Positions 34,899 to 55,337 of a stretch of DNA of 64,000 nt are shown here, piece by piece (positions within the stretch are counted from its first letter, which is position 1; the number at the start of each line of letters is the position of its first letter). A model generated the notes under the pieces. That model was not told the DNA's origin and did not search any database. It saw nothing but the letters and a program-made list of their open reading frames with translations. A program made the position numbers and the translations under genes. Source of the DNA: an uncultured Gemmatimonadales bacterium (GTDB lineage Bacteria; Gemmatimonadota; Gemmatimonadetes; Longimicrobiales; Longimicrobiaceae); assembly GCA_963716255.1 (NCBI GenBank), contig OY970303.1, positions 96,001 through 160,000 of the forward strand, given 5' to 3'.

Positions 34899-34916
34899 CG
34901 GACTGCGACCGCGGGT

Positions 34917-36610: not shown

Positions 36611-39073
36611 ATGAGCAAGAACGACGACGAAGCCGCCGCCAAGCCGCCCACCGGCTTCAAGGCCGCAGCCGCGCAGCCGGACGACGGCTTCGCGGAGTTC
36701 CTGAAGGCGTTCGCGCCCGCGCTGCGGAGCGGCCTGGACGATCCGGCGTCCGCCGACCCGGCGGGCGGCCTGCCGCCCACCGACGACGTCGCGCTGGCCA
36801 CGCATCTCTCCGAGCGGCTGTTCACCGAGGAGCTGGCGCGCCGCTTCTTTCCCCGCGAGGCCGCGGAGATCCTGGGCCCCGGCGGCGAGTGGCGCTGGTG
36901 CCTTCCCCTGGTGCGCTGCTGCTGGATGTTCGGGTGGCTGGTGTGCCGCGGCTGCCGCGACTACCAGGCGCTCAACTACTACCTGTACCGCTACTGGCTG
37001 TGCGTGCGCGCGGCCCTGGGGCGCGACCCGCGCACCCAGGTGTCCGGCCGGGAAAGGGAAGAGTTCCGCGCGCTGGCCGCGCTGCTGGGCAAAACCTACT
37101 CCGCGTGGCTCAAGGAAGAGGAGATGAAGGTGGCGCTGGACGCCGGCGCGGTGGACGACGTGCTCGCCGGCCGCACCGACTGCTGCCGCGACAACGCCTT
37201 CACCGCGGCGCTCTTCGACCGCCTGGCCACCCAGGAGGCCGCCGAGGCGCTGCTGGGGCGCGAGGCGTTCGCCCAGCACGCAAAGCACCCGTGGTTCTGG
37301 CTCTGCCGCTGCTGGTGCCGCGCCGCCATCCGCTTCGGGTGCTGCCTGGCCTGCGCGCGCTCGCACGAGGACATGCGGCGCTGCCTGGCCGAGTACCAGC
37401 GCAGCCTGGCGGACTGCGTGGGGCCGCTGCGCTGCGAGCTGACCCGCCCCACCGGGTGCTTCGAGGAGCAGCCCATCCTGGAGATCGAGGACCTGGGCGT
37501 GCCCGTCACCGGCACCGCCATGGGCGCGTTCTTCGGCGGCTACACGCTGGAATGGCGCTTCGTGGAGGGCGAGGAGTGCGGCGGGCCGAGCGGGTGGAGC
37601 TCGGTGGGGGTGGTGTACCCCGGCGGCGGGGCCGCGGGCTCCGCGCCGGTGCTCAACGGCACGCTGGGGTGGATCAAGACCCGGCTCCTCCCCGCCCGCT
37701 CGTACGAGGTGCGCGTCTGCCTGAGGACGTCCCGGCCCGGCACCGCGCCGCCGTGCTGCTGCATCATCTTCAACCTGTTCAAGCGCTTCGTGTGGATCAA
37801 CCGGGTGGGCGCCGGCTGGGTGGGCGACAGCGGCGTCTTCGACCCCGACGCGCCGCTGGTGCACCCGCCCGTCCCCGATCCCGCGTCGCACCTGGTGCCG
37901 GTGGGGTGCTGCGTCAACGTGCACGGCGCCGCCTGGGTGGGCGAGTGCAACGACCGCCGCATCCGCTGCTTCTCGCTGCGCTACGCGCCCAACTTCCTCC
38001 CCGGCTCCACTCAGCCGGGGTTCAACCCCGCGGTCTACGTCCCGCTCCCCGGCCAGCCCCCGGTGTGCTACACGCCCCCCGACGAGGCCGAGAAGCGCGC
38101 CCAGCCCAACGAGCTGACCGCCAACGACAGCATCCTGACCACGCAGTGGCAGCAGGTGACCGTCGACCTGTCCTCGTGGTTCGGGCTTCCGCCGCACACC
38201 ATCGAGCACAAGGAGTGGCACCTGCAGCCGCACTGCTTCGAATCCGGGAGCCTGCCGGCGTGCCTGGACGACGAGCACACCTGCGGCAGCGGGCGGTACA
38301 CCCTGCTGCTGGACGTGGAGGACACGCTGGGGAACCACTACTACGACACCCAGCACGTGTGGTTCGACAACAAGCGGCTGCACCTCCTGCTGGGCGGGCT
38401 GGAGGGGCTGCAGTCGTGCCAGACGCTGTCGATGAGGAGGTTCACGGGGAGCCGGCCCTGCGCGTCGCCGTGGCCGCTGCCGGTGATGGGCACCGCGTAC
38501 GACGAGTACATCATCCCCAAGGACCACAGCTACCCCAGCGACAACTTCGACTTCTACACCCTCACCATCACCCGCAACTGCGGCGGGCCCACCTACCAGG
38601 TGCCCATCACGCGCGACCTGGTGAACTTCGACAAGGACATCCTCACGGGCGCGGTGGACCCGCTCAAGGGGACGGCACACGTGGGCGTCCCCGCGCCGGT
38701 GTGCGCGTGCGACCCCAGCCTGGGGCCGGCGATGCACGGCGTGCTCACGCTGCTCGACATGCGCATCTTCGACGCCACCTGCGCGCCCCTGCTGCCGGCC
38801 CCGTTCCGTCCGCCGCCGGGGTTCGCGCTGCAGCGCGGCGAGTGCTGCGCGTACGCCATCCAGCTCTGCGGCCAGGACAAGACGGTGAACGACCTGGGCC
38901 CCGGGCAATGCCATTATGGGTGCACGCCCTGCTGCGCCATCACCGTCTGCAACGACCTGCAGCGCGAGGAGGCCGTGATCGCCGCCGGGGCGTACGACGT
39001 GGGCGACATGCTCGTGCGGGGCTCCCAGACCGCCGAGCCGGGCTCCGGCGCCGCGGCCGAGCCGGCCGGCTGA
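36611..39073 (+). CDS. Large cysteine-rich hypothetical protein
   Basis: GAGG RBS; GC3-biased ORF; many CC/CCC/CxC clusters. Confidence 0.8.
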   Translation: MSKNDDEAAAKPPTGFKAAAAQPDDGFAEFLKAFAPALRSGLDDPASADPAGGLPPTDDVALATHLSERLFTEELARRFFPREAAEILGPGGEWRWCLPLVRCCWMFGWLVCRGCRDYQALNYYLYRYWLCVRAALGRDPRTQVSGREREEFRALAALLGKTYSAWLKEEEMKVALDAGAVDDVLAGRTDCCRDNAFTAALFDRLATQEAAEALLGREAFAQHAKHPWFWLCRCWCRAAIRFGCCLACARSHEDMRRCLAEYQRSLADCVGPLRCELTRPTGCFEEQPILEIEDLGVPVTGTAMGAFFGGYTLEWRFVEGEECGGPSGWSSVGVVYPGGGAAGSAPVLNGTLGWIKTRLLPARSYEVRVCLRTSRPGTAPPCCCIIFNLFKRFVWINRVGAGWVGDSGVFDPDAPLVHPPVPDPASHLVPVGCCVNVHGAAWVGECNDRRIRCFSLRYAPNFLPGSTQPGFNPAVYVPLPGQPPVCYTPPDEAEKRAQPNELTANDSILTTQWQQVTVDLSSWFGLPPHTIEHKEWHLQPHCFESGSLPACLDDEHTCGSGRYTLLLDVEDTLGNHYYDTQHVWFDNKRLHLLLGGLEGLQSCQTLSMRRFTGSRPCASPWPLPVMGTAYDEYIIPKDHSYPSDNFDFYTLTITRNCGGPTYQVPITRDLVNFDKDILTGAVDPLKGTAHVGVPAPVCACDPSLGPAMHGVLTLLDMRIFDATCAPLLPAPFRPPPGFALQRGECCAYAIQLCGQDKTVNDLGPGQCHYGCTPCCAITVCNDLQREEAVIAAGAYDVGDMLVRGSQTAEPGSGAAAEPAG

Positions 39074-39074
39074 G

Positions 39075-39383
39075 GTGGACGCCTGGCTGCGGCTGGTGCT
39101 GGCCGTGCTCGCGTGCTGGCGGGTGACGCACCTGCTGGCGCGCGAGGACGGCCCGTGGGACGTGGTGGCCCGCCTCCGCGCCGCCCTGGGCGGCGGGATG
39201 CTGGGCCGGATGATGGACTGCTTCTACTGCCTGAGCGTATGGGTGGCGCTTCCGCTGGCCCTGTTCGTCACCCCCGCTGCGGCGGAGCGGGTGGTGGCGT
39301 GGCTCGCGGTCTCGGGCGGCGCCTGCCTGCTGGAGCGGATCGGACGCGAGCCGGTGGCGTTCACGCGGCTCGACGAACCCTGA
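39075..39383 (+). CDS. DUF1360-like membrane protein
   Basis: WRVTHLLAREDGP and MDCFYCLSVW. Confidence 0.75.
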   Translation: MDAWLRLVLAVLACWRVTHLLAREDGPWDVVARLRAALGGGMLGRMMDCFYCLSVWVALPLALFVTPAAAERVVAWLAVSGGACLLERIGREPVAFTRLDEP

Positions 39384-39400
39384 GCGACGGAGGTGGACCG

Positions 39401-39688
39401 ATGGGATGCTGTGGACAGAGCCGCGCCGCGTACGGCGGCCATGACGAGGCGCGCTACCCGCAGGCGCAGCCCGCCCCCGCCCCCATGCCGTGGACGGCGG
39501 AGCCCGCGGCGGCGGCTCCCCCGGCGGGGGGGGTGCGCCTGCACTTCACCCGGCAGGCGCGGGTGCGGGTGCGGGGGCCGGTGTCGGGCACGGACTACGT
39601 GTTCTCCGGAAGCGACCCGGTGCAGAGCGTGGCCGCCGTGGACGCGGACGGGCTGCTTCGCACGGGCTACTTTCGCCGCGCGTACTGA
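39401..39688 (+). CDS. Small protein starting MGCCG
   Basis: GGAGG RBS; GPVSGTDYVF..VAAVDADGLLRTGYFRR. Confidence 0.75.
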   Translation: MGCCGQSRAAYGGHDEARYPQAQPAPAPMPWTAEPAAAAPPAGGVRLHFTRQARVRVRGPVSGTDYVFSGSDPVQSVAAVDADGLLRTGYFRRAY

Positions 39689-39712
39689 TTTGAACGGCTT
39701 TTGACGACGGAT

Positions 39713-39848
39713 TCGGGCGTGCCCCCGGCTGGCGCCGGGGTCGGGCTTCGGCTCCGTAAGGCAGCAAACAACGCTGCCTAACGGAGTCGAGCCCCGGCGC
39801 AAACAGCCCCGCCGGGTCTCGCCCCTTCGGGCCGAAATCCCTCACGCG
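39713..39848 (+). repeat. Repeat family A, copy 8
   Basis: Matches consensus. Confidence 0.95.
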
Positions 39849-39927
39849 GGGATCACGCTGACGCCCGCAGATCCGGCGGGCGAACGGCGCCGGCCCCGCC
39901 ATCACGGATGCACCTGGCGTCTGGCAA

Positions 39928-40246
39928 CTACCCCGCCGCCCCCACCAGCGCGTCCAGCCGCTTCGCCGAGAACCCGGCCGTCGCGCGGTCCCCTGCGACC
40001 ACCACGGGCCGCGTGATGAAGGTGTACTCCTCCTCCATCAGCCGCAGCATCTCGTCCTCGGACACCTCGTGCTCGTGCAGCCCCATGGCGCGGTACTTCA
40101 TGGCGCGCCGCGAGAACAGCTTGTCGGGCCCGCCGACGAAGTCCGCCAGCCGCCGCACTTCGTCGGCCGGGAGGCGGTCGGTCTTGAGCGGTCGACGGCC
40201 ACGCCCCTGCCCTCCAGGTACGCGACGGCCTTCTGGCAGGGGGTGC
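39928..40246 (-). pseudogene. 5'-truncated, frameshifted duplicate of ArsC/Spx-family gene
   Basis: Near-identical to ~50229-50538 but lacks the first ~10 codons and has a 10-bp deletion (GTCGTGGAAG). Confidence 0.88.
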
Positions 40247-40636
40247 GCTCTGCATTTCCGCGTAACCACGGCATGATCTACATCCATCTCGCCACCTGAA
40301 CCGACCCCGGCCCACCAAGATTACGTCTGGTGGGCTTACGCATATGCCGACAATCCGTCGTGTGGACTGCCGATGCGTCGACGCGAACCATCCCACCAGC
40401 GCGCTCACCACTTCGCCGAAGAAAGCCAGTGGGAATCCGGGAGACCGTGGCCGACAGAACTAACGTGCCATGAGAACCCGCCGTCCATCACGGTGCGCGA
40501 GGGTTCGCCTGAACACACCTCATACACAATGCCGAAAGCGGGGAGCGCGCTTGGCCGGCCGTGACCGCGCGGAACACAGGCGGATTGCCCCGGCTATCGC
40601 GCAGAGAACCGCTACGCCATGCATCGGGATGACACG

Positions 40637-41389
40637 ATGACAAACCAGATCAAGGTCCTCTTGCTGGCTGCCAACCCGGACAATACTACCAAACTGCACC
40701 TAGACGAGGAGGCAAGAGCCATCGCTGAAGCCATTCAATACGGGCGCGATCGCGATTCGCTCGATTTCGAGACGGCGTGGGCGGTGCGAGCCAGCGACCT
40801 GCAGCGGGTAATCCTGCACCACGAGCCCCAGATCCTGCACTTCAGCGGGCACGGCAGCAAGTCGCCGGGACTCATGATGGGAGGCGAGAACGGCGACACG
40901 CTCCCCGTCAGCGGAGAGGCGATCGCCGCCATTGTGAAGGCGGCGGCGCCCCGCATCCGGATGGTGGTCCTGAATGCCTGCCTGTCGCTCCACGTCACCC
41001 GCCGCTTCCGGAACGCCGTCGACTACACGATCGGCATGAACCAGCCGATCAGCGACCCCTCAGCGATCTGGTTCTCAGCGGCTTTCTACGGTGCGCTCGC
41101 GGCCGGTACCACGGTGGAGAAGGCATTCGAGTGGGGCATCGCCCGCCTGCTCACCCAGGGATCGAGCGAGGCCGGGGTACCCAGGCTGCTCAAGCGCAGG
41201 GGCCTTCGGACCCCGGCGGCGCTGCTTCCCGCGCCCGTACCCGAGCCAATACCCGAACCCGGACCCGCGCCCGAGCGCCTTTCGGCGCCCGCGCCGCACT
41301 ACGGCCCGAGGATCACCGCGAACGAAGTCGGAGACGTCATAACCCTCAACGGCGACAACGCCACCGTCAACACATCCCGCAAGCGATAA
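40637..41389 (+). CDS. CHAT-domain (caspase-like) protease
   Basis: VLLLAANP, LHLDEEARAI, LHFSGHG (His), VVLNAC (Cys), FYGALAAG; alternative start 40619. Confidence 0.88.
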   Translation: MTNQIKVLLLAANPDNTTKLHLDEEARAIAEAIQYGRDRDSLDFETAWAVRASDLQRVILHHEPQILHFSGHGSKSPGLMMGGENGDTLPVSGEAIAAIVKAAAPRIRMVVLNACLSLHVTRRFRNAVDYTIGMNQPISDPSAIWFSAAFYGALAAGTTVEKAFEWGIARLLTQGSSEAGVPRLLKRRGLRTPAALLPAPVPEPIPEPGPAPERLSAPAPHYGPRITANEVGDVITLNGDNATVNTSRKR

Positions 41390-41421
41390 CCCGGAGCCCG
41401 ACCACTCAGGGAGCGGAGATC

Positions 41422-44037
41422 ATGGAGTGTCCCCGTTGCAGCATGCCAATCCCAGAAGGCGAGAATTGTCCGGTGTGCTCACTGGAGGTGCAGCCCCCCG
41501 GCGTAGAGCCACAGGCCGAGCAATGGCAGGACTCCGTTGATGAGGTCGAAGCAGCGGCAAATGCCGCCACAGCGGCCGAAGCAGCTGCGACAGCGGCCAC
41601 CGGGACGACCGCGACGACCGACGGCACGGCGTACTCGCCTTCCGACGTGGCACCGGAAGAGAGCAAGTCTGGCCCCGGCGATGTGAACGAGAATGATCCA
41701 CCGCCCGTTCCGGGATCCACCGAGATCGATGCGAACGAAGTCGGCGACGTCATCACGGTCAATGGCAACCGCGCGGCGTTCGTCGGCGCGGTGAACAATT
41801 ACAATTACTACGGCGCCACATCCGAAGTGGAAGAGGAGACGGTCGCGGCGCTGCTGGAGAAGACCACGGAGTTCGAGCTGGACAGCCTCCCCTGGGCGGC
41901 GCTGGACGCGGAGGAGGTCGCCCGCCATGCACGCGTGCTCGCGGAGGAAGGGCTCCTGCTCGTCAGCTGCGTGGACCGCTCGCTGGCCCGCGCCGCCGTT
42001 CAGGCCGTGGTCGCCGCGCTGGAGCTGGAGCCCGCGCGTGTGCGGCTCCTCGGCTTCGGCCGGTTGGGGACCGACCAGGCGTCGCTCACAATTCACGACC
42101 TGCTGAAGTGGAAAGTCGACACGGACACCCGGACGATCGTGGTGGCCGACGCCGACAGCGTGCACGCGCAGCCGTTCCTCGACTCCCTCCTGGGCAGGGA
42201 TGGCGCCTTCCTGGCCACCTACGTCCGCCGTTCGCTGGCCCAGCGCAAGCTCCGGCTGGTCTGCCTGGCCGAGCCCTCGCGGTACGCCGCGCTGACCCGC
42301 GCGGGCGAAGAGTCCGGGTTCACCCACTGGACGGTCCCGTTCCTGGAGCCGTTTCTACGGCGCGAGTTCGCCGGCGACCACGAGGCGCTGCACTCCGCGA
42401 TCCTGCGGCAACGGGACGAGGGGCGGTGGAGCCGCGACGACGCGGAGCTGTGGCACCAGGTCCGGACTTTCTGGGGCCAGGGGCGCCTGCGCGAGGTGGT
42501 GGTTGACGGCGGCATCCGCGTGCAGCCGATGGTGGTGGACGAGCAGCGACCCATGCACCAGATCGTGCTGTTCACGGCCGCGTTCTTCACGGCACTCAGC
42601 TCCACGGACTTCGATCGGGTGGTCACCGCCCTGCTGGGAGACGCCACCATCCCTATGGCCGTCCCGACGGCGCCGGGCGCGAGCGAGACCGCCGCCCCCG
42701 CCGCGCACCGCGACAAGCCGCTCGCTCAGCTGTGGCGCGAGTGTGCCGACCGCATCAGGGACGAGTGCGGGCTGGTGGTGATGCGCGACCCCGCCGCCCG
42801 CCAGGTCGTGGAGTTTCGGGAGCCCGGGGCCCGCGACGCGCTTCGGCGGCGACTGGAAGAGGAATACCCGTTCCACCTGCACACCACCTTCGACCGGCTG
42901 CACGGCACCGGCCTCCTGTTCGCCGGCTCCGACGCCGTGGCGGCCAACGTGGTCCGCGTCACCGCGCACATGGCGGAGGGCCACCCCGAGACCTACGGCC
43001 GGGACTGGGTGGTGGGGATGCTGGTGGTGAGCCGCGTCCGCACGGCGGACACCCTCCCGCTGCACCACGTGATGCGGCGGTTCGGGGAGCTGCTCCGCGA
43101 GCTCTCCGCGCGCCCGGCGGTGCGCCCCCTGGTGGAACAGGTGCTGAACTGGCTGCTGGGGGTGCCCGACTTCCATGCCACCGTGTTTGCGCTGGCCGGG
43201 CAGCTCCGGTTCGCGCCCGAGTTCGACGTGCTCCGCTGGCTGCGCCAGCTCATCGACCGTGGTGATGCGAACGCTCGCGCGGCGGCCTTCACCTTCCTGT
43301 ATCGGGAGCTCCTCGCCGTCGGCGGGCAGGTGTACCCCACCCTGCACACCCTGGCGGACTGGCTCCCGCCCGAGGACGCCAGGACCGGCCGATACTCGCT
43401 CTCCCAGCGGTACGCCTTGCGCCTGCTGGTGGAGTACGCCGCGACCACCGCCGCCCGCTTCGACCCGGAGTGCTACGGCGAGCGGCCCGTCCGATACCCC
43501 CTGCTGGCCGTGGGCGCAGAGACCGGTCGGCGCGACCTGGGACTGCTCGTCCGCTGGCTCCTGCACCCCGGGATCTCCGAGGCCGTCCGTGACGGCATCG
43601 CCCGGCGGGGAATCCCGCGCCTGGTGGCGGCGCTGGTGGCGGAGTGGACGTTCATTCTGTTCGGCCCCCACGAGATCCCCACCCCGCCCCGCCCCGACAC
43701 CGCCCGGCCGGGCGCACCGGTCGCCCTCTCCGAAGCCGCGGAACCGGGGGATGCGCAGCCTAGGGCCGACGGGGACGACGGGGCGGCGTCTCCCGAATAC
43801 GTCTTCGAGGTCCTGCTGGAAGAGCTCACGGCGCGAACCCGGACTCGCGAGGGCCGCGAGGCCGGCCGGGAGATGCTGTCCTACTGGCAGGAGATGACCC
43901 GGCTGCACCTCCCGTCTCCGAAGACGAGCCGCGCGGCGCGCAAAGAGCTGGAGTGGAAGCGGGGCCTGTTCCGCGCCCTTCTCCTCCGGTACCGCGCCCT
44001 GCAGACCGCTCCGGCCCCATCGGCCCCCACCCCGTGA
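41422..44037 (+). CDS. Zn-ribbon + motif + inactive STAND-like NTPase with helical C-terminal region
   Basis: GGAG RBS; CPRC/CPVC; degenerate P-loop region LAEEGLLLVSCVDRSLAR and IVVAD; helical repeat-like remainder; fold is inferred. Confidence 0.65.
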   Translation: MECPRCSMPIPEGENCPVCSLEVQPPGVEPQAEQWQDSVDEVEAAANAATAAEAAATAATGTTATTDGTAYSPSDVAPEESKSGPGDVNENDPPPVPGSTEIDANEVGDVITVNGNRAAFVGAVNNYNYYGATSEVEEETVAALLEKTTEFELDSLPWAALDAEEVARHARVLAEEGLLLVSCVDRSLARAAVQAVVAALELEPARVRLLGFGRLGTDQASLTIHDLLKWKVDTDTRTIVVADADSVHAQPFLDSLLGRDGAFLATYVRRSLAQRKLRLVCLAEPSRYAALTRAGEESGFTHWTVPFLEPFLRREFAGDHEALHSAILRQRDEGRWSRDDAELWHQVRTFWGQGRLREVVVDGGIRVQPMVVDEQRPMHQIVLFTAAFFTALSSTDFDRVVTALLGDATIPMAVPTAPGASETAAPAAHRDKPLAQLWRECADRIRDECGLVVMRDPAARQVVEFREPGARDALRRRLEEEYPFHLHTTFDRLHGTGLLFAGSDAVAANVVRVTAHMAEGHPETYGRDWVVGMLVVSRVRTADTLPLHHVMRRFGELLRELSARPAVRPLVEQVLNWLLGVPDFHATVFALAGQLRFAPEFDVLRWLRQLIDRGDANARAAAFTFLYRELLAVGGQVYPTLHTLADWLPPEDARTGRYSLSQRYALRLLVEYAATTAARFDPECYGERPVRYPLLAVGAETGRRDLGLLVRWLLHPGISEAVRDGIARRGIPRLVAALVAEWTFILFGPHEIPTPPRPDTARPGAPVALSEAAEPGDAQPRADGDDGAASPEYVFEVLLEELTARTRTREGREAGREMLSYWQEMTRLHLPSPKTSRAARKELEWKRGLFRALLLRYRALQTAPAPSAPTP

Positions 44038-44052
44038 ACACACGAGGCTGAC

Positions 44053-47000
44053 ATGGCACAGACGTACCCTCTGGATCGGGTGATCCGCAAGGTCCCGCCG
44101 GGCGGCGCCACGGCGGACGCGCAGCGGATCGTGACCGTGCTCGTCGGAGAGCGGACGGTGGTGCCTCGCAGGCCGTTCCCGTGGAGTGACGTGCAGTACT
44201 TCCTCGTCTCCCACCACGGCGACCCCACCCACCAGTGCCGGGTGGAGATCCCGGCCGTCGCCCTGGCGGACCTGGACGAGCAGGTGGAAGTGTCCGTGAA
44301 CCTGCTGGTCAACTGCCCGCCGGGTGACGAGGCGCGGGTGACCCTGGCGCTGTTCGACCCGGTGGACGCCCCGCACGCGATGCTGGAGCGGCACGTGGTC
44401 CGCTGCCTCCGCGACCTGGGCCAGGCCGACGTGGGCGCGTTCACGCGGCGATTCTTCGCCGATCCGGCTGCCGTCCAGCAGGACCTCGCCGAGGCGCTAG
44501 CGCGCGGTACGGGGCTGCGCGTCCACGCCCGGCTCTCGCTGGACCAGGGTCCCGACCGCGACGTGGTGCGCGTGGAGGTGGCCCACCTCGCCGTCCTGGC
44601 CGCCGACTGGGACGAGGAGCAGGACCTGGCGATCCGGGTCGACCTCGAGGTGGACGACGCTGGCTTGGCCGACGCCGTCCTGAGCCGGGCGCGGATGCCG
44701 GAGCTGAACGTCATCGTGCCCCGGGAGATCCGCGCCTTCGTGCGGCGGCGGATCTCGCTCGCGGAGCTCCCGAGGATCGGCGCCGGGGCGGCCAGGCAGG
44801 CGCTGGTGAGCCACCTCGACGACGTGCTGCGCCCGCTCGGACGGCGCGTGGGCGCCCTGGTGCTGCAGCCCGCGAACGTGCAGGGAGCTCCCCCGGACCA
44901 GCTTGCCGTCCTGGAAGTGGTGGACGTGCCCTGCACCGTGCGGGAGTATCCCAGGCCCGTCACGATCGCGAACCGGGTGCTCCTGCGGGTGGTGGACCTG
45001 GTGAGGTATCGCGGCGAGGCGTCGCCCGAGCTGCGCACGTGGCTGCGCGATACGCTGAACCGGCTGGTCCCGGAGACCCTGTTCGAGGCGCGCTACACGG
45101 ACCTGCTGCTGCGATTCGATCGCTGGGAGGAGCGGATCAAGCAGGCCGTACGCGCGGCGGCGGAGGGAATCGGGTGCGAGATCAGCCAGTTCATCACCGA
45201 TCCCGACCTCCCCGAGAAGATTCTCGTCAAGCCGTTCGTCATCCGCACCGAGGGGGCCTTCGAGACCCGGCTGCACGGCGTGGACGCGAAGCTGGAGGTG
45301 GTGGTCACGGCGCGCATCCCCCGCCTGGAAGACATCGCCTCGCTCCTCGCCCGGGAGCCCGACATCCCCCGCGCCATGGAAGAAGCCGTCCGCACCGCCC
45401 TGGAGGCGCGGATGCACGCGCTGCACCCCGAGCGCTTCTACATGCGGTTCGGCTTCGCCGACCCGGTGCGCCACGCCGAGGAGACGCAGTCGGTGGAAGC
45501 GGAGCTGATGGAGCACGTGGAACGCCGGCTCACGGAGGGCGAGTTCCACGCCGAGGTCGTCGGAACCGTCATCAAGATCGTGGAAACGGACCTCATCCGC
45601 CGCTTCCGCGAGCTGCAGGAGGCTACCCCCGACTTCGTCCTGCGCGTGGAGTCGCTCGACGCGGAGGTGGTGGATTTCGCCGCCAACCTCCGGGTGGGAG
45701 CCGTGCACTACGACGGCTGGCAGCGGTTCCGCGTCCTGACCGGCGGAATCGAGCAGATCACCGCTAGGGTGCGGGACCAGGTGGACACCGTGCTCCACAC
45801 CCTCCCCGCCGCGGAGCTGCTCTATCAGGGCGAGGCGGAGCGGAGCGCGCTGGAGGCCCGGGTGTCCGCGGCCGTACTGCAGTACGCCGCCGAGCAGTTC
45901 GGCCTCGTGGTGCACCTGGCCAATTTCCGCCGCACCCGCACGGAGAGCGAAACCGCGTACCACGCCACCCTGCGCGGCGAGTGGCAGCGCGAGGCAGAGG
46001 CCCGCGCGCGGCTCCAGGAAACCGCCGTCGGCGCCAGGCTCAACGAGTACGCTGGCATGGCCGCGGCCATTGAGCGGCTGACGGAGCGGTGCACTGAGCT
46101 GTACGGGGTGGAGGGTGAAGAGAAGGAGCTGGCGCGGGTGGAGCGCGAGATCGCCGCGCTCTCGTCGCGCCTGCGCGAACACTCCCGGCTCCCGCTGGAC
46201 GCGGGTCCAGACCGCGACGTGGTGCGGGTGGAGATGGCCCACCTTGCCGTCTTCGCCTCCGACTGGGACGAGGAGCAGGGCCTGGCGATCCGGATCGACC
46301 TCGAGTTGGGCGACACCGGACGGGCCGACGTCGTCCTGAGCCGCGCGCGGCTGCCGGACCTGCACGCCATCGTGCCCCGGGAGATCCGCGCCTTCGTGCG
46401 GCGGCAAATCTCGCTCGCGGAGTTCCCCAAGATCGGAGCGGGGGAGGCCAGGCAGGCGCTGGTGAGCCACCTGGACGAAGTGCTGCGCCCCCTCGGACGG
46501 CGCGTGGGCGCCCTTGTGCTGCAGCCCGGGAACGTGCTGGCGGCGCCTCAAGACCAGCCGTCCGTCCTGGAAGTGGTGGACGTGCCCTGCACCGTGCGGG
46601 AGTATCCCAGGCCCGTCACGATCGCGAACCGGGTGCTCCTGCGGGTGGTGGACCTCGTGAAGTATCGCGGCGAGGCGTCGCCCGAGCTGCGCACGTGGCT
46701 GCGCGATACGCTGAACCGGCTGGTCCCGGAGACCCTGTTCGATGCGTGCTACACGGACCTGCTGCTGCGATTCGATCGCTGGGAGGAGCGGATCAAGCAG
46801 GCCGTTCACGCCGCGGCGGAGAGAATCGGGTGCGAGATCAGCCAGTTCATCACCGATCCCGACCTCCCCGAGAAGATTCTCGTCAAGCCGTTCGTCATCC
46901 GCACCGAGGGGGCCTTCGAGACCCGGCTGCACGGCGTGGAGGCGAAGCTGGAGGTGGTGGTCACGGCGCGCATCCCCCGCCTGGAAGACATCGCCTCGCT

Positions 47001-47982
47001 CCTCGCCCGGGAGCCCGACATCCCTCGCGCCATGGAAGTGGCCGTCCGCACCGCGATCGAGGTGGGGATGCACACGCTGCACCCCGAGCGCTTCTACATT
47101 CGGTTCGGCTTTGCCGACCCGCTGCGCCACGCCGAGGAGACGCAGTCGGTGGAAGCGGAGCTGATGGAGCTCGTGGAACGCCGGCTCACGGAGGGCGAGT
47201 TCCACGCCGAGGTCGTCGGCACCGTCATCAAGATCGTGGAACCGGACCTCATCCGCGGCTTCCGCGAGCTGCAGGAGGCTACCCCCGACTTCGTCCTGCG
47301 CGTGGAGTCGCTCGACGCGGAGGTGGTGGATTTCGCCGCCAGCCTCCGGGTGGTGGCCGTGCACAACGACGGCTGGCAGCGGTTCCGCGTCCTGACCGGC
47401 GGTATCGAGCAGATCACCGCCAATGTGCGGGACCAGGTGGACACCGTGCTCCACACCCTCCCCGCGGCGGAACTGCTCTACCAGGGCGAGGCGGAGCGGA
47501 GCGCGCTGGAGGCCCGGGTGTCCACGGCCGTGCTGCAGTACGCCACCGAGCAGTTCGGCCTCGTGGTGCGGCTGTCCAATTTCCGCCGCACTCGCACGGA
47601 GAGCGAAACCGCGTACCACGCCACCCTGCGCGGCGAGTGGCAGCGCGAGGTGAAGACCCACGCACGACTCCAGGAAGCCGCCGCTGGCGCCCGGCTCAAC
47701 GAGTACGTCGGCATGGCCGCGGCCATCGAGCGGCTGACGGAGCGGCGCACCGAACTGTACGGAGTGGAGGGCGAGGAGGAGGAACTGGAGCGGGTGGAGC
47801 GCGACATCGCCGCGCTCGAGTCGCGCATGGGAACGGTGCCCGCTGCCTCCGCCGCGCAACTGCGCAGGCGGGCCAGCGGGACGGCCGCGGTGGACCGGGC
47901 GTTCCCCGCCGGGGCGGCCGTGGACGCGGTGGATCTAGTGTACGAAGGCGAGCCGGAGGCCGCGCCGACGGTCGAGTCATGA
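44053..47982 (+). CDS. Multi-SPFH/band-7-like protein with 552-aa internal duplication
   Basis: 1656-bp period DNA duplication; repeated beta-beta-alpha-alpha-G-beta units followed by coiled coil; SPFH assignment inferred. Confidence 0.7.
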   Translation: MAQTYPLDRVIRKVPPGGATADAQRIVTVLVGERTVVPRRPFPWSDVQYFLVSHHGDPTHQCRVEIPAVALADLDEQVEVSVNLLVNCPPGDEARVTLALFDPVDAPHAMLERHVVRCLRDLGQADVGAFTRRFFADPAAVQQDLAEALARGTGLRVHARLSLDQGPDRDVVRVEVAHLAVLAADWDEEQDLAIRVDLEVDDAGLADAVLSRARMPELNVIVPREIRAFVRRRISLAELPRIGAGAARQALVSHLDDVLRPLGRRVGALVLQPANVQGAPPDQLAVLEVVDVPCTVREYPRPVTIANRVLLRVVDLVRYRGEASPELRTWLRDTLNRLVPETLFEARYTDLLLRFDRWEERIKQAVRAAAEGIGCEISQFITDPDLPEKILVKPFVIRTEGAFETRLHGVDAKLEVVVTARIPRLEDIASLLAREPDIPRAMEEAVRTALEARMHALHPERFYMRFGFADPVRHAEETQSVEAELMEHVERRLTEGEFHAEVVGTVIKIVETDLIRRFRELQEATPDFVLRVESLDAEVVDFAANLRVGAVHYDGWQRFRVLTGGIEQITARVRDQVDTVLHTLPAAELLYQGEAERSALEARVSAAVLQYAAEQFGLVVHLANFRRTRTESETAYHATLRGEWQREAEARARLQETAVGARLNEYAGMAAAIERLTERCTELYGVEGEEKELARVEREIAALSSRLREHSRLPLDAGPDRDVVRVEMAHLAVFASDWDEEQGLAIRIDLELGDTGRADVVLSRARLPDLHAIVPREIRAFVRRQISLAEFPKIGAGEARQALVSHLDEVLRPLGRRVGALVLQPGNVLAAPQDQPSVLEVVDVPCTVREYPRPVTIANRVLLRVVDLVKYRGEASPELRTWLRDTLNRLVPETLFDACYTDLLLRFDRWEERIKQAVHAAAERIGCEISQFITDPDLPEKILVKPFVIRTEGAFETRLHGVEAKLEVVVTARIPRLEDIASLLAREPDIPRAMEVAVRTAIEVGMHTLHPERFYIRFGFADPLRHAEETQSVEAELMELVERRLTEGEFHAEVVGTVIKIVEPDLIRGFRELQEATPDFVLRVESLDAEVVDFAASLRVVAVHNDGWQRFRVLTGGIEQITANVRDQVDTVLHTLPAAELLYQGEAERSALEARVSTAVLQYATEQFGLVVRLSNFRRTRTESETAYHATLRGEWQREVKTHARLQEAAAGARLNEYVGMAAAIERLTERRTELYGVEGEEEELERVERDIAALESRMGTVPAASAAQLRRRASGTAAVDRAFPAGAAVDAVDLVYEGEPEAAPTVES
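44539..47830 (+). repeat. Intragenic tandem duplication, unit 1656 bp
   Basis: 44539 and 46195 both begin CTGGAC...GGTCC.GACCGCGACGTGGTGCG; long identical runs between units. Confidence 0.95.
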
Positions 47983-49481
47983 GCACGCGCGCGCTCGCCG
48001 ACCCGGGCGTTCGCCGCCGGGTCGCCGGCACCGACCCCGCGCGGTGGGCGCTGCAGCCGGAGTTCTGGCGAGGCCAGCCGGCGCTCCTCGTCACCCTGGG
48101 AGGAAGCCTGCTCGGGATCATCCTCCTGGCCCCGTTCACCTACAGCGGCGCCACCTCCATTCTGTCGCTGCTCGTGCAGGCGCTCGCGGTGTGGGGAGTC
48201 GTGATCGCGGCGCGCGGGCTAGCCGCGGCAGACGTGGACCTGGCCCTGATCCACGAGCTGGACGAGCGCAGCTCCGGCTACCTAGCCGGGCTGGCGGCCC
48301 AGGGCGAGAGCCGAATGGACTTGGACAGGCTGGAGCGTACCCTGGTTCCCAACAACCCGGCGGCCCCCGTGCCCGGCCCCATCCGCATCTTCCAGCAGGT
48401 CTGCAAGGAAGCGCGGGACCGCCGGTTCGAGTCGGCGAGCACACTGGTGCAGCCGTATCGGGACGAGGCCACGGAAGACCTCTTCCGCCTGCAGAACCTG
48501 CAGAAGATCGCGCTCTGGATGGGCATCCTGGGCACCTTCGTGGGACTGCTGATCGCCCTGCGGGAAAGCGGCGGGACCGTGGTGAGCGACGGCGCGCTCA
48601 CCGCGCTGGTGGAGGAGATGTACGGCGGCCTCTTCGTATCGTTCACGGCCAGCGTCGCCGGCCTGGAGGTGGCGATCATCCTGAGCTTCGTCCTGCTGCT
48701 GCTGCGCAAGCGCCAGGAGCTGTGCTTCGCCCGGATGGAGAGCGTGGCCGTGACGTTGCTGTCGGCCGCGCGGCACGCCATCAACCACGACGACTTCATC
48801 CACGAGTTCGCGCAGGTGAACACCACCGTCCGCGACCTCGCCAACCGGGTCCACGAGCAGACCCGGGGCATCGTCGACCGGCTGAACGGGGTGGAGTCGC
48901 GACTGTGGGATCAGAACGAGCGGATCGACGCCGGGCTAGAGCGGCTGGCCGGAGCGCGGAGCGAGTTCGAGCGCTTCCTGCAGAACGTGAGCGACGCCGA
49001 ACACCAGTTCCTCGGCGAGCTGGCCAGGCTCTTCGAGGCCGCGTCGTTCCGGGACCTGGCCCAGACCCTCCATGATGGCACACGCGAGGTGGGGGATCGA
49101 CTGACCGGGCGGCTGGACGACATGACGTCACGCAACGCCGCGCAGCTGGAGGCGTTCGACGCGTCCGTGCAAGCACTCACGGCCGCCGTGCAGGCCCAAT
49201 CGGCCGGGTTCGCGGCCAGTGTGGACCGCCTGGAGAGGGAGGTCACCGCGACCTCCGCGCGCAACGCCGAGGCGGTCCTGGCCGCATGTGCACGGTTAGC
49301 GTCGGTGGCAGAGCGGCTCCAGGGCGGCCCGAGATCGAGCGCGGCCGTGCTGGAACTGCTCGCGTCTCGTCTGGCGGAGCTGGACCGCACGCTCCGCCGG
49401 CAGACGTCGCCCAGGCTGCGCAACCTCCTGGTCTCCATCGTCCCCAGCGGGTGGAGGAACGGCGCCGGCAGCCACCGGTGA
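47979..49481 (+). CDS. MotA/TolQ/ExbB-family membrane protein with long helical tail (ZorA-like)
   Basis: ATGA overlap; LWMGILGTFVGLLIAL and GLFVSFTASVAGLEVAIILSF; ~250-aa coiled-coil-like tail. Confidence 0.78.
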   Translation: MSTRALADPGVRRRVAGTDPARWALQPEFWRGQPALLVTLGGSLLGIILLAPFTYSGATSILSLLVQALAVWGVVIAARGLAAADVDLALIHELDERSSGYLAGLAAQGESRMDLDRLERTLVPNNPAAPVPGPIRIFQQVCKEARDRRFESASTLVQPYRDEATEDLFRLQNLQKIALWMGILGTFVGLLIALRESGGTVVSDGALTALVEEMYGGLFVSFTASVAGLEVAIILSFVLLLLRKRQELCFARMESVAVTLLSAARHAINHDDFIHEFAQVNTTVRDLANRVHEQTRGIVDRLNGVESRLWDQNERIDAGLERLAGARSEFERFLQNVSDAEHQFLGELARLFEAASFRDLAQTLHDGTREVGDRLTGRLDDMTSRNAAQLEAFDASVQALTAAVQAQSAGFAASVDRLEREVTATSARNAEAVLAACARLASVAERLQGGPRSSAAVLELLASRLAELDRTLRRQTSPRLRNLLVSIVPSGWRNGAGSHR

Positions 49482-49511
49482 GGCGCCGACCCACCAAAGT
49501 GGAAGGGTACC

Positions 49512-50183
49512 ATGCGATCCTCGCTCCACCTGAACGACGACACCAACCAGTTCGGTCCCGGCTCCGACCTGATGATCTCACTGGCCGCCGTGCTGCTGAT
49601 GCTGACGGTGATCGTCTCGCACCTGTATGGACGAGAGCGGCTGCGGGCGGAGGAAGACAGGGCGAAGTACGAGACCTTGCGAACGGACTACGTGCGGGAC
49701 AGCACGCGCTTCGAGGAGCAGAGGGCGAGGTTTGCGCGGGATGTCGCCGCGGGGGGCTCGTTCCGCGTGGCAACGGCGTCCGTCCCCGCCGCCGATTTCC
49801 ATCCCTACCCCGTCACCCGGCTGGTCAGGCCCGAGCAGACGGAGCTGCGCGTGCAGCAGATCGTGGCGGAGTACCGGCGGCAGGACTACCCGTACATCTT
49901 CGTGATCGGCCACTCCAGCGCCACCGACGATCCCGCGGCCGCGGATCGCAGCCACCGCGCGCGGCTCCAGCGGAACTGGGAGTACGCGGGGCGCCGTGCC
50001 GCGCTCGTCGCCGCGCTTGTCGAGCCGCACCTAACGGAGGCGGAGCGCGGCGGGCTCGTGGTGATGACCATGGGCGAGCTCGACATGCGCGATCCCGCCA
50101 ACCCGCTGTCACAGGAGAATGCATGGGTCGAGGTCGTCTTCGGAAAGGAGTGGAAGCCCCCGTCGCGGGCTGCCGGGAGGTGA
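49512..50183 (+). CDS. MotB/OmpA-like membrane protein (ZorB-like)
   Basis: SDLMISLAAVLLML TM with conserved Asp; FVIGHSS..NWEYAGRRA OmpA-like motifs. Confidence 0.75.
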   Translation: MRSSLHLNDDTNQFGPGSDLMISLAAVLLMLTVIVSHLYGRERLRAEEDRAKYETLRTDYVRDSTRFEEQRARFARDVAAGGSFRVATASVPAADFHPYPVTRLVRPEQTELRVQQIVAEYRRQDYPYIFVIGHSSATDDPAAADRSHRARLQRNWEYAGRRAALVAALVEPHLTEAERGGLVVMTMGELDMRDPANPLSQENAWVEVVFGKEWKPPSRAAGR

Positions 50184-50212
50184 CCCGGTCACGGGGCCGG
50201 GGAAGCTCCGGC

Positions 50213-50569
50213 TCACCTCCCGGCCAGGAGCGCGTCCAGCCGCTTCGTGGAGAACCCGGCCGTCGCGCGGTCCCCTGCGACCACCACGGGCCGCGTGATG
50301 AAGGTGTACTCCTCCTCCATCAGCCGCAGCATCTCGTCCTCGGACACTTCGCGCTCGTGCAGCCCCATGGCGCGGTACTTCATGGCGCGCCGCGAGAACA
50401 GCTTGTCGGGCCCGCCGACGAGGTCCGCCAGCCGCCGCACCTCGTCGGCCGGGAGGCGGTCGGTCTTGAGGTCGTGGAAGCGGTCGACGGCCACGCCCCT
50501 GCCCTCCAGGTATGCGACGGCCTTCTGGCAGGTGGTGCAGTACGGCAGCCCGTAGACGGTTACGCCCAT
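50213..50569 (-). CDS. ArsC/Spx/YffB family protein
   Basis: VTVYGLPYCTTCQKA and FITRPVVV..GFS. Confidence 0.88.
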   Translation of the reverse strand: MGVTVYGLPYCTTCQKAVAYLEGRGVAVDRFHDLKTDRLPADEVRRLADLVGGPDKLFSRRAMKYRAMGLHEREVSEDEMLRLMEEEYTFITRPVVVAGDRATAGFSTKRLDALLAGR

Positions 50570-50636
50570 TGTGTCATCCAGAGGTGAGTGTGTGTGTAGT
50601 TGACGTTCGCCGTTCCGCAGTACCCCCATGGTCCGT

Positions 50637-50768
50637 TGCGGAGGGAGACTCGCCGGCTGTTTGGCGAGGCTCCCTCCGGCGCAGGGAGACCCGGAGGCAG
50701 TTTTCCGGGGCTCCCGGAGCCCGCGTAGGAAACAGGCCGGCAGTTTGGCCTGGTTCCGGAGCGGCCCC
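50637..50768 (-). repeat. Repeat family C (triple hairpin), copy 2
   Basis: Reverse complement aligns with 28122-28254; three AAACWGCC loops. Confidence 0.85.
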
Positions 50769-50845
50769 GGCGCGCCCAAAGCAGAAGGCCGCCCCAAACA
50801 ATAGAGCGGCCCCCGATCTTCCAGGTACGAGCTCGCGACAAAAAA

Positions 50846-53936: not shown

Positions 53937-55337
53937 TCACTCCCGGCGTGCCAGCGGCGGCGGGCGGTGCAGCCATACCTCGTAGATCTTGTCGCTGGCG
54001 AAGGTGGGGTCGAACTCGCTGGACTGGTCGGCCGTGGCGAAGATCCCGCCGTACATCCACCCCACCCGTACGCTGTCACCCGGCGGCAGCTGGCTGTAGT
54101 CGATCACTTCGTGCGTGCCCGCCACCATGGTCCGGGCCTCGTCGGGCACGAAGGCCGCGTTCGCGCCGCGCCGCCCGGGGAGCCCCTGGCCGGCCGGCTG
54201 CACGACCTCCCGGGTTGAGCCGTCGGCGGCGCGCGCCAGCGTGGTGATCGTCCCCGTCCAGGGCAGGGAATTGTTGATCCCGCCGGGGACCAGGGTCCCG
54301 TTCGCATCGTAGTACCAGCCGCTGATTCCGCCCAGCAGAGTGGTGTACATCGTCTCCGTGCCGGGGTCGTACATCACCACGTGCGCACACTCGTACTGGC
54401 TCATCCGCATGCTGAACGCGGTGTCCAACGCGAACACCGGTGTCCCGCCGCCCGGCGGCACCGTCATGTACATGGGGTTCACCCACGCACCCGAGGTGGG
54501 AGTGAACACGCCGCCGTAGATCGCCAGCCCATGGACGCCGCCGGGCTGCACCGTCGTAACCACGTTCAGGTCGCGCCGGTGCCACTGCGAGTTGGGACCG
54601 CTGCCCGACGGGTCGCCATACGCCTGGTAGTCACGGATCTCGGGCGTGTACGGGGCCGGGAGCGTGAACGTGCGCACCTGCTCGGTATAGATGCCCGTGA
54701 CCCCACCCTTGTAGATCGAGTTGTAGTTGTGCCCCATCACAAGGTAGAAGGTGTCGCCAATCTTCTCGAGCGCGCCGCCCGTCACGCGCATCCGTTCGTC
54801 CGCCCGGGTGGAGATGACGCCGCCAATGCCGCCGAACTCCTGCCGCTTCACGAAGTAGACAAGGGAGGGAAGGGTGATGATGGTGAGGTTCGGATACGTC
54901 TGATAGCACGAAGGCTCGTCGTTGTCACAGGTGCTGCCGTAGCCGCCCACGACGTAGAGAAAGCTGCCGTCCTGGACGTACTGGGTGTTGCTCACCCGCA
55001 GGATCGAGCGGAACTGCGCCGGGAGCGGTGCGCTGTAGGTGCGGCCGGCCGCCATGTCCACTACGTAGATGCTGTCGTTCGCGGTGGAGGTGGGGAAGGT
55101 GCTTTCCCGTGTGCTGGTGCGGTGGAAGCCGTTGCGGCGCCCGCCGATCAGCACCCAGTCGTTGCCGCTCCGCCCCAGGGCGAACGACTGCAGCTTGGGG
55201 GTGCCCGGGGGCGCCGTGATCTCGCGCACGGTGAAGGTGAAGGGGAGCGCGGGGTCCGTCTGCGCGGCCGCGGGGAGCGCCGCCGCCGCGGCCAGCACGG
55301 CGGCCGCCAGCGTGCCGCGGAAGAGGTGGGCGCTCAT
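53937..55337 (-). CDS. Secreted kelch-like beta-propeller protein
   Basis: Signal peptide ending AAA-Q; repeated LIGGR, VVGGYG, VMGHNY, IYGGVF, LLGGIS, MYGGI. Confidence 0.75.
   Translation of the reverse strand: MSAHLFRGTLAAAVLAAAAALPAAAQTDPALPFTFTVREITAPPGTPKLQSFALGRSGNDWVLIGGRRNGFHRTSTRESTFPTSTANDSIYVVDMAAGRTYSAPLPAQFRSILRVSNTQYVQDGSFLYVVGGYGSTCDNDEPSCYQTYPNLTIITLPSLVYFVKRQEFGGIGGVISTRADERMRVTGGALEKIGDTFYLVMGHNYNSIYKGGVTGIYTEQVRTFTLPAPYTPEIRDYQAYGDPSGSGPNSQWHRRDLNVVTTVQPGGVHGLAIYGGVFTPTSGAWVNPMYMTVPPGGGTPVFALDTAFSMRMSQYECAHVVMYDPGTETMYTTLLGGISGWYYDANGTLVPGGINNSLPWTGTITTLARAADGSTREVVQPAGQGLPGRRGANAAFVPDEARTMVAGTHEVIDYSQLPPGDSVRVGWMYGGIFATADQSSEFDPTFASDKIYEVWLHRPPPLARRE

Follow-up and report, generated by a model that had tools for sequence, protein, structure and literature searches.

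A conserved, horizontally moving five-gene cassette, A-B-C-D-E, lies in a 64,000-nt stretch of an uncultured Gemmatimonadales bacterium (GenBank assembly GCA_963716255.1, contig OY970303.1, positions 96,001 to 160,000; hereinafter the window, with position 1 at its first letter), and it is a likely Zorya-like anti-phage (abortive-infection) system, although our confidence in this assignment is evenly balanced. The gene order is fixed, the site is an accessory hotspot, the five proteins have assignable folds, and A and B share a motif. The anti-phage role, the protease-mediated cell death through which it would be exerted and the order of events are inferred, the last by analogy with ZorAB and with BASS/NLR pairs; we hold the defence role with moderate confidence and the detailed mechanism with low confidence. 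By curated models and by its partner set, the cassette is not a member of the Zorya systems but a variant of Zorya-like systems. Its genes, and the segment that holds them, are the following.

40637..41389, + strand: gene A, a stand-alone CHAT (caspase-like) protease of 250 aa (Pfam CHAT, PADLOC SAVED_CHAT)
41422..44037, + strand: gene B, an 871-aa STAND-fold protein without a P-loop (AlphaFold2 model, Foldseek)
44053..47982, + strand: gene C, a 1309-aa cytoplasmic multi-SPFH protein (Pfam Band_7, model, structural matches)
47979..49481, + strand: gene D, a 500-aa ZorA-like protein of the MotA/ExbB type (PADLOC, NCBIfam, Pfam and PDB profile matches)
49512..50183, + strand: gene E, a 223-aa ZorB/MotB-like protein (family-level OmpA/ZorB matches, transmembrane segment)
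39689..50239, no strand assigned: variable hotspot segment in which the cassette sits; five same-genus genomes lack it or have other DNA there

The spacing between successive genes is 32, 15, −4 and 30 nt, the negative value being the ATGA overlap of C and D, and the third-position GC of the five genes is 0.82-0.92, as expected of real genes (the GC of the window is 72%). The first-pass annotation, made from the sequence alone, had described five closely spaced co-directional genes with one ATGA overlap, and the coordinates of the open reading frames (ORFs), the gaps and the third-position GC all agree with that description. A scan for hydrophobic segments found none in A, B or C, four in D and one in E.

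The same annotation had staked its proposal of a new defence system on the co-occurrence of these genes in other genomes, and they do co-occur. A word-limited search of 5.8 billion proteins at E <= 1e-3 returned 42 relatives of D, and all 15 loci fetched through D come from metagenome-assembled genomes of Acidobacteriota. The cassette is complete and in the same order in 11 of the 15 (L003, L004, L005, L006, L007, L009, L011, L013, L014, L015 and L016), is cut by a contig end in three (L002, L008 and L012), and is reduced in L010 to a C-terminal fragment of C followed by D and E. Ordered A-B-C-D-E was recovered by tblastn in nine loci, to which the reading of ORFs adds A in L004 and a divergently oriented A in L015; frameshifted pieces occur in L002 and L014. 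A far more distant complete cassette, with a D protein 31% identical to that of the window, was reached through B (L043). The fragment of C in L010 (L010:9430-9663), upstream of intact D and E, could represent either a decayed cassette or a co-assembly artefact.

These distributions bear on the possibility that A-B, as an effector/receptor pair, and C-D-E, as a membrane module, are separate systems that simply adjoin. Such a division would be in keeping with the occurrence of B without C-D-E and with the B family (508 representatives) appearing larger than the D family (42, from the word-limited search). However, A, B and C are found in the same order in 11/11 D-found loci with intact upstream DNA, the sole exception, L010, still keeps a fragment of C, the distant L043 retains all five genes, and the genes are tightly packed, with gaps of at most 32 nt and one overlap; we therefore regard two independent systems as quite improbable and treat the cassette as a single Zorya-like unit.

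The cassette is accessory in the lineage of the window. A profile of D found no strong match in 40 relatives (8 from the same genus and 16 from the same family), with partial matches (7.5e-6 to 4.8e-4) in 4 of the 40, and a profile of B matched 1 of 401 sampled genomes from the phylum of the window, namely the window's own, and 4 of 401 from the phylum of genome G423. At the DNA level, the segment 39689-50239 is present in none (0/5) of the same-genus genomes compared. One of these (G001) joins window position 35071 directly to 50229; two (G006 and G008) share only ~35177-36103; and G005 also holds a gene for an 841-aa protein and a DUF1360 gene (36599-39688), with other DNA, including GNAT and TMEM164-like ORFs, between 39688 and ArsC. 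At the hotspot, G008 carries ORFs with CHAT and NACHT domains. The placement of the genes inside an island thus holds, given the 35071/50229 junction in G001 and the lack of the segment in all five genomes. The hotspot ORFs of G008 (L030; G008:C175:37100-41100, minus strand) are long and overlapping, with matches to CHAT (3.5e-9) and NACHT (1.2e-7), and perhaps represent a CHAT-NACHT conflict gene read in two frames.

In the relatives, the flanks of the cassette include genes for TPR-CHAT (L005, L009, L011, L012), other CHAT (L004, L005, L006), Pepco (L004), Uma2 (L005) and PIN (L010) proteins, nSTAND1-WD40 along with transposases (L013), and ordinary metabolic genes. Directly downstream of E, an ORF of 305-325 aa is found in one subclade (L009:8780-9757, L010:12092-13009, L011:12027-13004 and L012:1943-2920); with a Pfam Nal1_C match in two of the four (3.1e-7 and 2.7e-6), it may be a sixth cassette gene, and it is absent from the window. 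In two further loci, the region just downstream of E encodes a pentapeptide-repeat protein with a second CHAT domain, which is either fused to it or comes after it (L005:10899-13106, L006:12107-14323); window A matches it at 35-36% identity.

The first two genes are also linked by a short motif shared by their products, which in A lies at the C-terminus.

40838..40981, + strand: catalytic dyad region of A, from HFSGHG (His72) to LNAC (Cys115), invariant in 10/10 sequences
41312..41374, + strand: C-terminal motif of A, ITANEVGDVITLNGDNATVNT, aa 226-246, matching B
41725..41787, + strand: copy of the motif in B, aa 102-122, inside a disordered linker (28-140), matching A

Protein A is a minimal CHAT domain without a transmembrane segment. 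It matches Pfam CHAT above the cut-off (E 3.1e-9; 37.1 bits, cut-off 24) and PADLOC SAVED_CHAT (3.9e-7), and the His-Cys dyad of CHAT peptidases, His72 (SGHG) and Cys115 (LNAC), is invariant in 10/10 aligned sequences, in accord with the CHAT domain and dyad originally read from the sequence. The two motif copies are ITANEVGDVITLNGDNA in A and IDANEVGDVITVNGNRA in B, with 13/17 core residues identical to B aa 102-118. The A motif is rich in N, T, V, G and I, contains neither K nor P and has a single L, a composition that fits the published bias of bacterial amyloid signalling sequences (BASS), which are ~20-25 residues long, rich in Q, N, G, V and I and poor in K, P and L (10.1101/2020.01.06.895854). 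BASS are located at the C-terminus of an effector, with CHAT among the effector domains, and at the N-terminus of the adjacent collinear NLR (10.1101/2020.01.06.895854), and one BASS pair has been described to give anti-phage defence (10.1101/2024.11.07.622273). A and B share this layout, in that one short motif stands at the C-terminus of the effector and recurs close to the N-terminus of the collinear receptor encoded next to it; B, however, is not an NB-ARC or NACHT NTPase.

The motif varies from locus to locus, as exemplified by the A/B pairs VGQVNRVNGDGAMIIGNL / VGQITAVQGNDAIIANNL in L016, VGDGNLNV / VGDGNTLI in L007, and HDVNN, GTFNNNT / RDFNN, HDFNHTT in L009 and L011. In Smith-Waterman comparisons across nine loci (the frameshifted L002 and L014 being left out, and L004 and L015 tested afterwards), cognate A/B pairs scored 46.2 on average versus 31.6 (standard deviation 9.3) for non-cognate pairs (permutation p 5.5e-4); the cognate pair ranked first in its row in 3/9 loci and first in its column in 5/9. 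Four other pairs were each compared with 300 shuffles: L004 scored 48 (shuffles 30.5 ± 4.7, highest 47), L043, with the pair VQQQFVASRQNF / IQQQFIASVQRF, 43 (29.3 ± 4.6, highest 47), L044 43 (27.6 ± 4.1, highest 42) and L015 27 (25.9 ± 4.7, highest 49). The pairs of L004, L043 and L044 carry motifs of unrelated appearance. Taken together, these comparisons suggest that the A/B motif is a predicted amyloid-type motif, laid out and co-varying by locus as in BASS effector/NLR pairs.

Protein B, the putative receptor of this pair, is recognisable by structure. Its parts are the following.

41428..41478, + strand: N-terminal CxxC...CxxC element, putatively zinc-ribbon-like (consensus MxCPxC...CxxC kept in the family alignment)
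41908..42336, + strand: alpha/beta nucleotide-binding-like domain, aa 163-305 (model, alignment, Foldseek)
41953-41976, + strand: degenerate Walker A (family alignment)
42133-42156, + strand: Walker-B-like strand (family alignment)
42829..44007, + strand: helical repeats at the C-terminal end, aa 470-862 (secondary structure as modelled)

No Pfam family, including NACHT, NB-ARC and GAP1, was matched by B or by 27 family members, and the B profile found no match in the PDB by sequence. The AlphaFold2 model (predicted local distance difference test, pLDDT, 76; predicted template-modelling score, pTM, 0.71) consists of a small N-terminal Cys-rich element, which the cysteine pattern suggests to be zinc-ribbon-like, a disordered stretch (28-140), the alpha/beta domain (163-305), a region of helices and beta-hairpins (308-465) and, at the C-terminal end, helical repeats (470-862), which would be a candidate sensor or docking surface. 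The top Foldseek matches of this model in the PDB are SAMD9 (1e-5), Avs3 (2.3e-4), Avs5 (2.4e-4) and Apaf-1 (9.9e-4), with CED-4, NLRP9, Avs4 and MalT among the others and eleven in all at E <= 1e-3. At 0.14-0.23, the global TM scores are low, as they should be for a chain of several domains. At the Walker A position, the family has LLLVSC(V/I)D..A..AA, GxxxxGK[ST] being missing in 27/27 aligned members, and an hhhhDA strand is kept at the Walker B position. The STAND/NLR matches and the missing Walker A therefore support the earlier description of B as inactive-STAND-like with a degenerate P-loop. A protein-atlas look-up returned nSTAND3-like for B, which we take only as a lead.

The B family comprises 508 cluster representatives at E <= 1e-3, 177 of them at E <= 1e-30. 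Three contexts reached through B (L041, L042 and L044) are without C-D-E, and in each a DO-GTPase2 protein (PF19993) comes after B. The order in L044 is TPR-CHAT, CHAT, B, DO-GTPase2 (1.1e-12) and two unknown proteins; in L041 (9787-12489, minus strand), a TIR domain is fused to the N-terminus of B (TIR_2 1.3e-20), with DO-GTPase2 (1.4e-8) following; in L042, the DO-GTPase2 match is weaker (1.7e-4), and a caspase lies farther along. The window cassette contains no MoxR, vWA, GAP1 or GTPase, so the B receptor family pairs with either a GTPase module or an SPFH-plus-motor module, and the swap of C-D-E for DO-GTPase2 beside B amounts to a natural experiment on how STAND-like receptors without an NTPase of their own are activated. 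The TIR-B fusion of L041 can be viewed as an 'all-in-one' counterpart of the two-gene A/B arrangement.

The same contexts lend some weight to a system for regulated cell death or kin conflict, such as those described for socially living or multicellular bacteria, which would not be specific to phages and in which the motor pair would replace the DO-GTPase switch. Constant third components, variable effectors and membrane-proximal variants have been described for such systems (PMC7159879), B relatives stand beside DO-GTPase2 in L041, L042 and L044, one of them being a TIR-B fusion, and TPR-CHAT genes are many in the flanks. However, this alternative overlaps the anti-phage explanation because such systems have also been proposed to counter invaders, B matches neither Pfam GAP1 nor any other model, and MoxR, vWA and GTPase are all missing from the window cassette; we consider it rather unlikely, and continue with the Zorya-like anti-phage interpretation.

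Protein C is by far the longest of the five, and its length has a local origin.

44491..46146, + strand: duplication unit of C, copy 1, aa 147-698 (self-comparison)
46147..47802, + strand: duplication unit of C, copy 2, aa 699-1250 (self-comparison)

An in-frame second copy of residues 147-698 occupies 699-1250, the two showing 87.5% amino acid and 92.2% nucleotide identity, synonymous divergence (dS) of 0.13 and a ratio of non-synonymous to synonymous divergence (dN/dS) of 0.49. The relatives of C are single-copy proteins of 724-829 aa, and the 1309-residue length stems from a lineage-specific in-frame duplication. Within one unit, at least three tandem SPFH-like modules are present. By sequence, C has one match to Pfam Band_7/SPFH (E 2e-8; 34.9 bits, cut-off 23.6). 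The model of residues 1-700 (pLDDT 88.1, pTM 0.46) is a chain of three-strand/two-helix modules with a long terminal helix (631-683), and its leading Foldseek matches are all SPFH proteins, namely prohibitin, stomatin, HflK/C, flotillin, erlin and QmcA; FliL ranks below these. A second structural aligner placed aa 284-390 on prohibitin (Z 13.9, root-mean-square deviation 2.1 over 103 residues) and stomatin (Z 12.4), aa 392-510 on the vault shoulder (Z 9.2), aa 514-692 on flotillin (Z 10.2) and aa 515-630 on FliL (Z 9.0). Because the modules share no sequence similarity when compared with one another by hhalign (probability <5%), the earlier reading of C as a poly-SPFH repeat protein is a structural one, and as such it stands. 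An N-terminal membrane anchor is a known feature of SPFH/Band 7 proteins; C has the SPFH domain fold, and in the hydrophobic-segment scan nothing in it reaches the threshold for such an anchor. C and the DO-GTPase2 protein are unrelated (hhalign probability 0.2), and a complex prediction for C aa 1-700 with the D tail (aa 243-500) scored 0.00, which speaks neither for nor against contact. A protein-atlas look-up for C pointed to SPFH or vault shoulder, again only as a lead.

The structural matches of C to HflK/C, prohibitin, stomatin and QmcA could also point to an envelope-stress or membrane quality-control module in which a cage of C gates protease A, D and E contribute energy or cell-wall sensing, and B is a scaffold. 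The pairing of SPFH proteins with proteases (HflK/C-FtsH, stomatin and its partner protease) and the rings of FliL are known themes (PMC6426602, PMC8794807). Unlike a housekeeping module, however, the cassette is sporadic across phyla, occupies a variable hotspot and has no strong D match in the 40 relatives; C is without a membrane anchor; and the combination of a STAND fold, CHAT and a shared motif is a signature of conflict systems. We judge quality control to be an unlikely function of this cassette and return to its Zorya-like reading and to the motor-like pair at the downstream end.

48081-48704, + strand: membrane core of D, aa 35-242 (hydrophobic segments)
48705-49478, + strand: tail of D, aa 243-500 (hydrophobic segments)
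49569-49625, + strand: transmembrane segment of E, aa 20-38, with Asp19 just before it (hydrophobic-segment scan, alignment)
49761-50159, + strand: OmpA-like C-domain of E (family-level OmpA matches)

Like ZorA, D has a MotA/ExbB-type core followed by a long cytoplasmic tail: its hydrophobic segments (35-53, 60-78, 176-194 and 224-242) are followed by a tail of 258 residues. Among NCBIfam models, only those of ZorA match D at E <= 0.01, with no ExbB, TolQ or MotA model. PADLOC ZorA1/2/3 match it weakly (best 4.9e-7; the ZorA3 alignment spans aa 181-473), and PADLOC ZorA matches were obtained for 5/5 D orthologues tested (1e-11 to 6e-8). In the PDB, the profile of D (28 members) matched 8vvn_C, a 696-aa MotA/TolQ/ExbB chain, at 3e-5 and E. 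coli ZorA (8qyd_A) at 0.02; the tail matched coiled-coil designs and helical-bundle chains, and the membrane core alone gave hydrophobic noise, with MotA and ZorA appearing only at E ~0.8-0.9. The far-diverged D orthologue of L043 passes the Pfam MotA_ExbB cut-off (29.6 bits versus 22.9). Two segments, GILGTFxGL with Thr186 and FSASxAGLE with Ser225, are invariant in 28 sequences; we would equate these residues with Thr147 and Ser184 of ZorA only provisionally, because the core of D on its own yielded noise against the PDB. Overall, the NCBIfam, PADLOC and PDB profile matches sustain the initial description of a ZorA-like protein with a long helical tail.

Protein E combines, as ZorB does, a transmembrane helix carrying a conserved Asp with a C-terminal peptidoglycan-binding type of domain. 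Asp19 stands at the start of the helix in 14/15 orthologues (Glu in the remaining one), and N155, R162 and A163 are invariant among the 15. In ZorB, Asp26 and the peptidoglycan-binding residues Tyr151, Asn152, Leu155 and Arg159 have been singled out (PMC11946911), and N155 and R162 of E may be equivalent to Asn152 and Arg159, judging only from the same Asn-to-Arg spacing of seven. Pfam OmpA is touched weakly by 13/15 orthologues (best 4.2e-4). The protein in the E position of L043 passes Pfam OmpA (41.6 bits versus 27.2) and matches ZorB1 (1.9e-10), and hhalign aligned the E family with it over the OmpA core motif at 94.5% probability. The MotB-like protein with a transmembrane Asp that had been proposed is consistent with all of these observations.

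An ordinary ExbB/ExbD, TolQ/TolR or MotA/MotB pair, serving uptake, envelope integrity or motility next to unrelated neighbours, is extremely improbable. The weak Pfam MotA_ExbB match of D and the presence of a TonB-dependent receptor in the window (57860-60061) would be compatible with it; however, ZorA models are the only NCBIfam models that match D at E <= 0.01, D has a long C-terminal tail, the OmpA-like domain of E is unlike ExbD or TolR, and D and E are accessory and always linked to A-B-C. The first-pass annotation had named an ordinary ExbB/ExbD or TolQ/R pair as the outcome that would undo its proposal, and no such NCBIfam model matches D or E at E <= 0.01.

The Zorya-like interpretation can be cast as a sequence of events, each step of which is a proposal. 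D and E would form a 5:2 proton-driven complex, with E anchored to peptidoglycan through its OmpA-like domain and Asp19 acting as the ion carrier. Damage to the envelope upon phage entry would cause ion flow and movement of the cytoplasmic tail of D. On the cytoplasmic side of the membrane, C would assemble into a ring or cage of the SPFH type and couple the tail of D to B, and because B cannot use NTP, its oligomerisation would be driven by mechanical or scaffold input instead of nucleotide exchange. The clustered motifs of B could then template the motif of A in an amyloid-like manner, as in BASS/NLR pairs, and the CHAT domains thus brought together would cause proteolysis and growth arrest or death of the infected cell.

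A bolder version is that the cassette represents a fourth type of Zorya-type immunity, with a proton-driven ZorAB-like envelope sensor that would act mechanically, by way of a cytoplasmic multi-SPFH scaffold, on a nucleotide-blind STAND receptor and so make it seed the prion-like templating of a caspase-like protease; we put this forward as possible but doubtful. If true, it would be the first link of a rotary ion motor to NLR/amyloid death signalling, and one receptor family would be drivable by either a GTPase switch or a motor. To our knowledge, the described Zorya systems end in nucleases. Were the cassette wired in this way, proteolysis would be a second, independent read-out for signalling by the ZorA tail, and the ZorAB-like motor would be an all-purpose input unit, able to serve more than one kind of effector arm. 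Zorya motors, NLR/amyloid (BASS) signalling and SPFH cages, three subjects that have so far been investigated separately, come together in the cassette. What goes beyond the first-pass annotation is the BASS-like motif common to A and B, the association of B-family members with DO-GTPase2 and the local duplication that accounts for the length of C.

Several observations weigh against the interpretation of the cassette as a Zorya-like defence system with a BASS-like arm. On the side of the motor, D falls just below the Pfam MotA_ExbB cut-off (20.5 bits, cut-off 22.9) and far below those of the curated ZorA models NF033915 (21.4 bits, cut-off 100) and NF041792 (14.5 bits, cut-off 700), its 258-aa tail is approximately half as long as that of E. 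coli ZorA, and E of the window, taken alone, reaches OmpA only at E 0.13 and has no match in PADLOC or, by sequence, in the PDB. As for the motif, the match is weak in 3/9 loci (L003, L006 and L013, scores 28-29); the loci include close kin (L005/L006 and L009/L011) and hence are not independent; the L043 score of 43 was reached by at least one of the 300 shuffles (maximum 47); the L015 pair, in which A is divergently oriented, scores 27 against shuffles of 25.9 ± 4.7, and therefore there is no match in that locus; and the motif in B is internal (aa 102-122), not at the extreme N-terminus. With respect to context, the neighbours of the cassette are conflict-type genes and not classical defence islands such as restriction-modification or CRISPR, a search of plasmids gave no cassette match, and viral contigs yielded a single weak match of 56 residues. 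No sigma-70-like promoter or intrinsic terminator was recognised between 39400 and 50900, which says little for such a genome.

The surroundings of the cassette in the window contain several additional features. The window contains no tRNA gene and hence offers no tRNA-linked site of integration. A GC-rich dispersed repeat of ~160-180 bp occurs at 33552-33713, 34908-35070 and 39691-39868; one of the copies is found at the left border of the cassette insertion, and of the more than 200 matches returned across the five same-genus genomes most are to these elements. The element at 50599-50784 aligns poorly with the three copies and is possibly different. Upstream of the cassette, 36548-39383 encodes the 841-aa protein, which has no Pfam or NCBIfam match, directly followed by a 102-aa DUF1360 protein; this pair is itself variable, being found in G005 and not in G001, G006 or G008. 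Downstream, 53937-57649 (minus strand) encodes two adjacent unknown proteins of 466 and 771 aa, the larger with a weak VioB-like NCBIfam match (5.8e-6), beside the TonB-dependent receptor (57860-60061).

Among the known systems, Zorya is the closest on the side of the motor. Three Zorya subtypes have been distinguished (PMC11946911, PMC11890865), and ZorAB has been described as a 5:2 motor with Asp26, a peptidoglycan-binding domain and signalling through its tail (PMC11946911). Zorya types I-III and the cassette both encode a protein of the MotA/ExbB type with an extended cytoplasmic tail, beside a MotB-like one that has a transmembrane Asp and an OmpA-like peptidoglycan-binding domain; in both, the pair is accessory, is located in variable loci and is accompanied by genes for soluble partners. 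However, the order in the cassette is reversed relative to Zorya with its ZorC/D, ZorE or ZorF/G partners, the partners being upstream and the motor pair last; where Zorya has nucleases or helicases, the cassette has a protease, a STAND-fold protein and an SPFH protein; and D, with four hydrophobic segments against the three transmembrane helices reported for ZorA, has a shorter tail and scores that come nowhere near the cut-offs of the curated ZorA models. In PADLOC, no model of the type-defining ZorC-G partners was matched by A, B or C at E <= 0.1. The partner set had been called unlike those of described types, and the match to an already described system that would have contradicted this was found neither in the PADLOC profiles, where no ZorC-G or other system matches A, B or C, nor in the full-text literature (supplementary tables not covered), which yielded no description of a ZorAB-like pair with such partners. 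ExbB/ExbD and TolQ/TolR pairs are more remote, no ExbB or TolQ NCBIfam model matching D or E at E <= 0.01.

On the side of the effector, the resemblance is to BASS pairs, including the anti-phage Bab/Agp: a C-terminal G/N/V/I-rich motif of ~20 residues, a collinear receptor with a copy near its N-terminus, CHAT among the effector domains, and a motif that varies between lineages and matches within the pair. Unlike the receptors of those pairs, B lacks a P-loop and a Pfam NACHT or NB-ARC domain and carries the motif after a zinc-ribbon-like element and a linker, and the operon that contains the A/B pair also includes SPFH and motor genes. Inactive-STAND (iSTAND) systems with MoxR-vWA and DO-GTPase systems with GAP1, as well as constant 'third components' with variable effectors and membrane-proximal variants, have been described by Kaur et al. 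2020 (PMC7159879). The cassette is similar to these ternary systems in that a constant non-catalytic third component goes with variable effectors (caspase-like, TIR), some of the systems being membrane- or cell-wall-proximal, and, as in DO-GTPase systems, relatives of B adjoin DO-GTPase2 proteins. MoxR and vWA Pfam models found nothing in A-E and the flanking genes, and DO-GTPase, GAP1 and GASH are absent from the window cassette; an ion-driven motor pair and an SPFH protein stand where the NTPase switch of those systems would be.

C itself resembles the SPFH cage proteins (HflK/C, prohibitin, stomatin and flotillin) in having an SPFH fold followed by a long helix, and differs from them in its several tandem modules, the lack of a membrane anchor and the block of modules duplicated here. 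FliL, a stomatin-like ring around flagellar stator units (PMC6426602, PMC8794807), is an earlier example of an SPFH-like protein that accompanies a MotAB-type unit, although FliL is periplasmic whereas C is predicted to be cytoplasmic. Taking into account all these comparisons, the cassette most likely is Zorya-like on its input side, joined to a protease arm similar to those of BASS/NLR systems.

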